Below are positions 1 to 1,231 of a DNA stretch of 1,231 bases, in pieces. This DNA is from Escherichia coli. Lineage in GTDB: Bacteria; Pseudomonadota; Gammaproteobacteria; Enterobacterales; Enterobacteriaceae. Under the pieces are notes generated by a model. The model was given only the letters and a program-made list of their open reading frames with translations, was not told where the DNA came from and ran no database searches. Positions within the stretch are counted from its first letter, which is position 1. The number at the start of each line of letters is the position of its first letter. Location of the stretch: NCBI RefSeq assembly GCF_003334765.1, contig NZ_QOWT01000081.1. One strand, given 5' to 3'. A program made the translations under genes and the position numbers.

Positions 1-12
1 CGGCTAAGTGAG
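1..12 (+). repeat. Inner part of the left terminal inverted repeat (IRL); outer ~27 bp including the TGATC terminus lie outside the window
   Basis: cggctaagtgag (1..12) is the imperfect inverted counterpart of ctcgcttaggcc (1193..1204) at the inner end of the right repeat: reverse complement of 1193..1204 is ggcctaagcgag, matching 1..12 at 10 of 12 positions. Confidence 0.65.
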
Positions 13-18
13 TAAACT
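13..18 (+). promoter_or_regulatory. Candidate -10 hexamer (TAAACT) for the orfA/orfB transcript; any -35 would lie in the IRL portion outside the window
   Basis: taaact at 13..18, about 20 nt upstream of the ATG at 39, at the IRL boundary where IS3-family promoters usually sit. Only a motif match; weak. Confidence 0.3.
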
Positions 19-26
19 CTCAGTCA

Positions 27-32
27 GAGGTG
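27..32 (+). promoter_or_regulatory. Shine-Dalgarno sequence for orfA
   Basis: gaggtg at 27..32, 6 nt upstream of the ATG at 39..41. Confidence 0.6.
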
Positions 33-38
33 ACTCAC

Positions 39-338
39 ATGACAAAAACAGTATCAACCAGTAAAAAACCCCGTAAACAGCATTCGCCTGAATTTCGCAG
101 TGAAGCCCTGAAGCTTGCTGAACGCATCGGTGTTACTGCCGCAGCCCGTGAACTCAGCCTGTATGAATCACAGCTCTACAACTGGCGCAGTAAACAGCAA
201 AATCAGCAGACGTCTTCTGAACGTGAACTGGAGATGTCTACCGAGATTGCACGTCTCAAACGCCAGCTGGCAGAACGGGATGAAGAGCTGGCTATCCTCC
301 AAAAGGCCGCGACATACTTCGCGAAGCGCCTGAAATGA
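39..338 (+). CDS. insE: IS3 OrfA (InsE): small DNA-binding transposition regulator, 99 aa, with helix-turn-helix N-terminus and leucine-zipper-like C-terminus
   Basis: ATG 39..41 preceded by an SD; TGA stop 336..338. Translation [50 protein letters not shown]... matches IS3 InsE as I recall it. The track ORF starts at GTG 30, but the ATG at 39 with proper SD spacing is the more credible start. HTH-like segment about 96..176; heptad hydrophobic repeat (I70/L77/L84, L73/L87) about 219..320. Confidence 0.92.
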
Positions 339-1201
339 AGTATGTCTTTATTGAAAAACATCAGGCTGAGTTCAGCATCAAAGCAATGTGCCGCGTGCTC
401 CGGGTGGCCCGCAGCGGCTGGTATACGTGGTGTCAGCGGCGGACAAGGATAAGCACGCGTCAGCAGTTCCGCCAACACTGCGACAGCGTTGTCCTCGCGG
501 CTTTTACCCGGTCAAAACAGCGTTACGGTGCCCCACGCCTGACGGATGAACTGCGTGCTCAGGGTTACCCCTTTAACGTAAAAACCGTGGCGGCAAGCCT
601 GCGCCGTCAGGGACTGAGGGCAAAGGCCTCCCGGAAGTTCAGCCCGGTCAGCTACCGCGCACACGGCCTGCCTGTGTCAGAAAATCTGTTGGAGCAGGAT
701 TTTTACGCCAGTGGCCCGAACCAGAAGTGGGCAGGAGACATCACGTACTTACGTACAGATGAAGGCTGGCTGTATCTGGCAGTGGTCATTGACCTGTGGT
801 CACGTGCCGTTATTGGCTGGTCAATGTCGCCACGCATGACGGCGCAACTGGCCTGCGATGCCCTGCAGATGGCGCTGTGGCGGCGTAAGAGGCCCCGGAA
901 CGTTATCGTTCACACGGACCGTGGAGGCCAGTACTGTTCAGCAGATTATCAGGCGCAACTGAAGCGGCATAATCTGCGTGGAAGTATGAGCGCAAAAGGT
1001 TGCTGCTACGATAATGCCTGCGTGGAAAGCTTCTTTCATTCGCTGAAAGTGGAATGTATCCATGGAGAACACTTTATCAGCCGGGAAATAATGCGGGCAA
1101 CGGTGTTTAATTATATCGAATGTGATTACAATCGGTGGCGGCGGCACAGTTGGTGTGGCGGCCTCAGTCCGGAACAATTTGAAAACAAGAACCTCGCTTA
1201 G
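39..1201 (+). CDS. OrfAB fusion transposase (InsEF) made by programmed -1 ribosomal frameshift at 302..305; roughly 385-390 aa
   Basis: The -1 frame is open without stops from the slippery site (302..305) through the orfB ATG at 335 to the stop at 1201, so a -1 slip on the Lys codon AAG (303..305) fuses OrfA residues 1..89 to the full OrfB frame. This is the established expression mechanism for the IS3 family. Confidence 0.8.
302..323 (+). promoter_or_regulatory. Programmed -1 frameshift signal: A-AAG slippery motif (302..305) followed by a GC-rich hairpin (stem 308..312 / 319..323)
   Basis: Zero-frame codons caa-aag (300..305) give the A_AAG motif. Directly downstream, cgcga (308..312) can pair with tcgcg (319..323) around a 6-nt loop, and the following gcgcc (326..330) could add tertiary pairing. 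IS3 frameshifting is known to use an A-AAG motif plus a downstream structured stimulator; I have not folded the complete structure. Confidence 0.7.
335..1201 (+). CDS. insF: IS3 OrfB (InsF): transposase catalytic domain, DDE/RNase H-like integrase fold, 288 aa as an independent frame
   Basis: ORF in the -1 frame relative to orfA; ATG 335..337 overlaps the orfA stop (ATGA); TAG stop 1199..1201. DDE triad at D135 (WAGD, nt 737..739), D195 (HTD, nt 917..919) and E231 (VESFF, nt 1025..1027), with 36 residues between the second D and the E. Sequence matches IS3 InsF by recall. Confidence 0.92.
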
Positions 1202-1231
1202 GCCTGTGTCCATATTACGTGGGTAGGATCA
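1193..1231 (+). repeat. Right terminal inverted repeat (IRR), about 39 bp, ending in the canonical IS3-family 5'-TGATC...-3' terminus when read from outside
   Basis: Reverse complement of the window end is tgatcctacccacgtaatatggacacaggcctaagcgag, a typical IS3-group terminus with TG at the tip. Its inner portion pairs imperfectly with 1..12. The orfB stop codon TAG (1199..1201) lies inside the repeat, as is usual for IS3-family elements. Confidence 0.85.

Follow-up and report, generated by a model that had tools for sequence, protein, structure and literature searches.

An IS3 copy from Escherichia coli, complete except for the outermost 27 nucleotides of its left end

The DNA analysed here, a stretch of 1,231 nt from an E. 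coli assembly (contig NZ_QOWT01000081.1; hereafter the window), is, judged by its sequence, an ordinary copy of the E. coli insertion sequence IS3 that is complete save for the outermost 27 nt of its left end. IS3 is a classical E. coli insertion sequence of 1258 bp, the founding member of the IS3 family, and has been characterised since the 1980s. We assign a probability of about 0.9 to the explanation as a whole, namely that the window holds nt 28-1258 of IS3, that this copy is almost certainly functional, and that the outer 27 nt were most likely lost for technical reasons. The element is thus one already known, and the scientific weight of this copy is small, as most E. coli genomes carry IS3; the window can now be labelled and masked as a known mobile element.

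Megablast searches and alignment with the full-length copies of three loci (L001-L003) placed window positions 1-1231 on nt 28-1258 of the 1258-bp IS3 (27 + 1231 = 1258). Across the whole window, identity to loci annotated as "IS3-like element IS3 family transposase" in complete E. coli genomes was 100%; assignment to IS3 proper at the isoform level calls for identity well above 95% over the whole element, and we found 1231/1231 nt. Identical DNA in RefSeq carries a transposase CDS marked "programmed frameshift" that starts at window position 39, and the corresponding RefSeq protein is WP_085947771.1, with the same product name. The IS3A copy of K-12 MG1655 (annotated as mobile_genetic_element, "insertion sequence:IS3A", with insE1/insF1) agrees with the window at 1230/1231 nt, the sole mismatch being G at window position 173 against A in K-12, a synonymous change of CAG to CAA in orfA.

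The element is widespread. Megablast matches occurred in 4685 of the 5426 complete E. coli genomes, the median number of places in a genome being 3; a single place spanning 80% or more of the query was present in 4519 records, and in 4083 the best place was at least 99% identical. In the plasmid megablast, IS3 copies with 100% identity were found on plasmids of E. coli and Citrobacter, and related copies in Shigella, Klebsiella, Salmonella and other genera. The exact E. coli IS3 was also seen in metagenome-assembled genomes labelled Candidatus Nanosynbacter, Lachnospiraceae, Collinsella and Flavobacterium psychrophilum (L005, L006, L008, L009 and L010), most likely pointing to binning contamination by Enterobacteriaceae contigs rather than to real IS3 hosts.

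Comparison with the full copies fixed both edges of the window to the base. In L001-L003 the 27 nt immediately 5' of the match read TGATCTTACCCAGCAATAGTGGACACG, with unrelated host DNA further out, and on the other side the three copies diverge from the first base past ...GGATCA, where the window ends; the same divergence was seen in 29 distinct contexts. The initial annotation had placed the left edge about 27 bp inside the left inverted repeat (IRL), a figure that proves to be exactly 27 nt, and had correctly put the right edge at the IS terminus. It had also described the remaining IRL as "ending in TGATC", which was right in meaning, but 5'-TGATC is the outer start of the IRL. That the element fills every base of the window agrees with the 100% identity to annotated IS3 copies, and the statement that no flank, target-site duplication or host gene lies within it is true by construction. 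As that annotation also said, the window, which carries no flanking sequence, does not reveal the insertion context.

Elements of the IS3 family end in imperfect inverted repeats of the form 5'-TG...CA-3'; the window holds the full right inverted repeat (IRR) together with only the inner 13 nt of the IRL (Table 1). An ungapped alignment of the two repeats gives 28 matches in 40 positions, and the resemblance is greatest at the outer tip, TGATC.TACCCA. The orfB stop codon (1199-1201) falls inside the IRR, as does the window's single GATC site (1227-1230). In K-12 MG1655, IS3A is annotated with a length of 1255 bp, and its outer left tip (L132:2227-2231) reads GCCTC, not TGATC, a non-canonical IRL terminus.

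Table 1. Features of the IS3 copy, in window coordinates
Feature	Position	Strand	Basis or remark
Inner IRL remnant (IS3 nt 28-40)	1..13	+	Outer 27 nt (TGATCTTACCCAGCAATAGTGGACACG) missing; full copies L001-L003
orfA, InsE-type, 99 aa from ATG 39	39..338	+	ORF list; HTH_Tnp_1; RefSeq start; K-12 insE1 at the same position
A_AAG slippery tetramer, -1 frameshift	302..305	+	0-frame AAG 303-305, -1 frame AAA 302-304
Putative pseudoknot stem, perfect 10-bp helix	311-320 with 337-346	+	GACATACTTC with GAAGTATGTC; inverted repeat, 100% complementary
orfB, InsF-type, 288 aa, -1 frame relative to orfA	335..1201	+	ORF list; Pfam; NCBIfam NF033516
Catalytic D1, OrfB D135, WAGDITY	737..739	+	Aligned to the GDIT aspartate of retroviral integrase chain 7ouf_D
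Catalytic D2, OrfB D195, HTDRGGQY	917..919	+	Aligned to the TDNG aspartate of integrase 7ouf_D
Catalytic E, OrfB E231, CVESFF	1025..1027	+	35 residues between D195 and E231; K238 at E+7
IRR, complete, ends ...GGATCA-3' (terminal CA)	1192..1231	+	IRL/IRR alignment; flank divergence past 1231

Sister copies elsewhere retain their flanks. Some of them are bordered by 3-bp duplications (gta/gta, ata/ata, cac/cac and atc/atc, the last of these also in L133 and L134); identical 3-bp flanks occurred in 9 of 29 distinct contexts, as against 1/64 expected by chance. In the other 20 contexts matching flanks were absent, as would be expected if the IS had mediated rearrangements or if metagenome contigs were chimeric. 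A single right-hand junction (right flank AAATGCCGCTTTATGGTGAC, adjoining dgcT in L001) was shared by L001, L069 and L089, where it was combined with three different left flanks and lacked a 3-bp duplication, suggesting deletions or recombination mediated by IS3, or again chimeric metagenome contigs. Two short metagenome contigs carried outward-pointing IS3 left ends at both of their ends (L023, 145-195 on the minus and 2402-2452 on the plus strand; L055, 25-75 on the minus and 4261-4311 on the plus strand). The segments between these inverted copies may represent either a composite-transposon-like arrangement or an artefact of the assembly graph.

Two unusual arrangements of IS3 were also encountered. 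In E. coli CRE10 (L135:301-2308) an IS1 is nested within IS3, with about 767 nt of annotated IS1B transposase lying between the parts that correspond to window 1-388 and 379-1231; positions 379-388 are duplicated, and the insertion breaks up the IS3 transposase gene. By implication, E. coli strain EC24 shares this layout. In E. coli NWU_1 (L136:301-1606) the last 75 nt of an intact IS3 (window 1157-1231) are repeated in tandem directly behind it, giving two right ends in succession, and strain NWU_4 is similar. This tandem right end may stem from aberrant transposition or repair, or may be an artefact of assembly.

The left edge of the window lends itself to several explanations. One of them is that the copy is genuinely truncated in the genome, the outer 27 bp of the IRL having been lost by deletion, adjacent insertion or an IS-mediated rearrangement; such a copy would remain a possible source of transposase, while its own left end would not be mobilisable. 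The 27 bases are simply absent from the window, damaged copies do exist (the GCCTC tip of K-12 IS3A and the IS3 interrupted by IS1 in L135), and the 20 of 29 contexts that lack matching target duplications point to rearrangements at IS3 ends. We looked at what precedes window nt 1-51 elsewhere, using the exact 51-nt pattern and a sample of 8 species-representative genome contigs and at least 120 JGI/ENA metagenome contigs. Among the matches listed there were 133 occurrences; the canonical 27 nt stood upstream in 125 of them and single-base variants in 8, and non-IS3 DNA in none. The 27-nt tip was thus missing from 0/133 occurrences, so that real truncation at IS3 nt 28 should be rare, below about 2-3% by the rule of three. 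A truncation also gives no reason for the opposite edge to lie exactly at the IS terminus, whereas a technical boundary explains both. We consider a true truncation very unlikely. Equally doubtful is the idea of a chromosomally fixed IS3 derivative without the outer 27 bp of the IRL, or of a functionally distinct (attenuated or immobile) lineage marked by the single-base variant G27A, which lies in the transposase-binding part of the IRL and is described below; if true, a one-ended IS3 derivative would supply OrfA and OrfAB in trans, and only one-ended or IRR-driven events would be open to it.

A technical rather than a biological loss of the outer 27 nt is most likely, and we infer the cause of the left boundary from the way in which repeats are assembled. 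In de Bruijn assembly, the contig of a repeat is the longest stretch common to all of its copies. The right boundary of a collapsed IS3 contig would therefore lie where the flanks of the copies diverge, and the left boundary where the copies themselves differ, for example at IS nt 27. Such a difference exists in nature: the G27A variant of the IRL (TGATCTTACCCAGCAATAGTGGACACA) is found in an IS3 copy of E. coli M1/5, of WWCOL-236 and of one gut-metagenome contig (L075, about 2900-2981, minus strand; L133:2319-3576; L134:2319-3576). This copy sits in a DUF4222 gene, is flanked by the duplication atc/atc, and over nt 28-1258 is 100% identical to the window, as confirmed in two complete genomes. 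Since a repeat contig is the stretch shared by all copies, a genome with both a G27A and a canonical copy would collapse to a contig of exactly nt 28-1258 (1231 nt). In WWCOL-236 a second place matches the query made of flank plus IS3.

Collapse of a repeat contig in de Bruijn assembly is thus a plausible and the likeliest cause, and it would account for both edges at once. The initial annotation had named a contig collapsed at a repeat boundary as one of its alternatives, and G27A now provides this plausible account with a concrete mechanism. In public assemblies, 15 flank contigs were found to end 127 nt inside IS3 and 2 to end 140 nt inside it, lengths of about k-1, indicating that assemblers routinely break at IS3. 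Two observations count against collapse: among the fetched species-representative and metagenome contigs none began at IS3 nt 28, and G27A is rare, with most of the flank-plus-IS3 query present in 3/5426 complete E. coli genomes and G27A confirmed in 2 of these. The end of L075, 55 nt past nt 27, is where SPAdes with k=55 would stop beyond the G27A branch, but the detail is not specific, as L019, with a canonical IRL, ends at the same IS position.

A further technical explanation, close to the other alternative of the initial annotation (a window cut around an IS), is that the boundaries of the window come from an extraction or annotation step (the boundary of a feature or of a similarity hit, or trimming), in which case the genomic copy would be a full-length IS3. 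Its right edge is exact to the base, as boundaries derived from annotation can be, and no standalone contig equal to the window was present among the public contigs listed. A boundary caller working from inverted repeats or from similarity would normally include the outer tips, however, where IRL and IRR are most alike, and the reference annotations of IS3 seen here span 1255-1258 bp; we regard this explanation as less likely. The left boundary of the window is best read as an artefact of assembly or extraction. More generally, where a collapsed repeat contig begins or ends can be decided by single-base polymorphisms within IS termini, of which G27A is an example, and such boundaries are not to be mistaken for real truncations.

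The coding part of the element is intact. The two reading frames overlap by ATGA, the orfB start codon (335-337) and the orfA stop codon (336-338) being interleaved, and an in-frame GTG lies at position 30, upstream of the orfA ATG. OrfA contains the Pfam DNA-binding domain HTH_Tnp_1 (residues 12-78, E 1.4e-08) as well as a coiled-coil region. OrfB matches rve (2.3e-27), rve_2 (3.6e-20) and HTH_21 (1e-11), that is, a DDE core resembling that of retroviral integrases together with a helix-turn-helix. The -1 frame is already open upstream of the slip site, and fusion at this point (39-305 joined to 305-1201) yields an uninterrupted OrfAB of 387 aa. Against the NCBIfam model NF033516 ("IS3 family transposase"; cut-off 160 bits) OrfAB scored 392.7 bits over profile positions 1-369 of 369, and OrfB by itself 339.2 bits. 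Membership in the IS3 family is consequently seen in the overlapping -1-frame ORFs with their slip site, in the NF033516 score above the cut-off, and in the DD(35)E residues and lysine of the rve core. The assertion of the initial annotation that both ORFs and the catalytic residues are intact was borne out by the 99-aa orfA, the 288-aa orfB, D135, D195 and E231, and the lysine at E+7. As this copy shows the commonest natural IS3 sequence, without a difference, throughout its coding and right-end parts, we infer that this copy is almost certainly functional. Two antisense ORFs of 91 aa each (203-478 and 938-1213, minus strand) also appeared in the ORF list and were taken to arise mechanically from the GC-rich coding sequence.

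Window positions 296-310, CCTCCA-AAAG-GCCGC, equal the published frameshift window of IS3, CCUCCA-ZZZN-GCCGC, and the IS3 pseudoknot is described as beginning directly after GCCGC, with its 3' half past the UGA of orfA (PMC4066793). The perfect helix formed by 311-320 and 337-346 encloses the orfA stop and the orfB ATG, and is present in both the MFE and the centroid folds; it fits the published description of the pseudoknot. Among relatives of 78-93% identity only one position varied within window 295-349, compared with a mean column identity of 88% over the aligned region. Near-invariance of this kind is what a dual-coding overlap with a functional RNA signal would show. The fold of 295-420 was not significantly more stable than those of shuffled sequences (z = -1.36), and an Rfam scan of the window on both strands at E<=1 gave no match, the frameshift pseudoknot included. 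It is thus the literature and the conservation, and not the thermodynamic fold, that support the pseudoknot.

Two other candidate structures were set aside. A perfect 13-nt inverted repeat (149-161, TGAACTCAGCCTG; 362-374, CAGGCTGAGTTCA) brackets the frameshift region, with a rough chance expectation of about 0.01 in 1.2 kb. As a conserved long-range helix it was rejected, since the relatives of 78-93% identity showed 2 wobble-compatible changes, 2 disrupted pairs and 0 compensatory changes. A hairpin at 8-38 that overlaps the orfA start (-12.6 kcal/mol) was indistinguishable from shuffles (z = -1.54).

By its identity with IS3 and its family membership, the element should follow the mechanism described for the IS3 family, in which copy-out/paste-in transposition proceeds through a figure-of-eight and a circle and leaves a short target duplication (PMC3219604, PMC10379815). 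On what is established for IS3 and its family, carried over here by sequence identity, orfA would be translated from the ATG at 39, and at A_AAG the downstream pseudoknot, with its first stem predicted at 311-320/337-346, would stimulate some ribosomes to slip back by 1 base. Slippage would give the OrfAB transposase, which combines a helix-turn-helix at its N terminus with a coiled coil and a DD(35)E core of the integrase type. OrfAB would then bind the terminal inverted repeats, cut one 3' end at the terminal CA and join it beside the other end of the element; host replication would convert the resulting figure-of-eight into an IS circle, whose insertion elsewhere would duplicate 3 bp of the target. 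Promoters were sought with simple consensus scans. No sigma-70-like promoter was found in the left 120 nt of the complete IS3 at a modest threshold, and the modelled circle junction gave a weak 8/12 promoter match that depended on the spacer bases. Within the window two weak promoter-like sites were found deep in orfB (946-973 and 1063-1092), and no terminators.

Compared with IS3 as known from E. coli (insE/insF in K-12), the window has the same orfA/orfB layout, the same A_AAG cassette and the same IRR, with 3-bp duplications in sister copies; the only difference from full copies is the absence of the outer 27 nt of the IRL. Its relatives of 78-93% identity (L137-L140, on Shigella, Klebsiella and E. 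coli plasmids) belong to the same length class and share the ORF organisation, and their frameshift cassette is identical save for one position, against 7-22% nucleotide divergence elsewhere. With 100% identity to IS3 proper, assignment of the window to one of these relatives is ruled out. IS911, IS2 and IS150, the members of the family that have been studied best, resemble it in having two overlapping ORFs, a -1 frameshift to OrfAB, a DD(35)E core, imperfect terminal repeats ending in CA-3', and copy-out/paste-in transposition by way of a figure-of-eight and a circle (PMC3219604), yet they are distinct elements with distinct sequences. IS2 and IS911 possess a junction promoter, Pjunc, whereas nothing comparable was evident in the modelled IS3 circle junction by simple scan. 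The frameshift signals differ as well: in IS911 and IS2 the slip site is an A-rich heptamer accompanied by a stem-loop and/or an upstream SD-like stimulator, while IS3 uses the A_AAG tetramer and a pseudoknot (PMC4066793).
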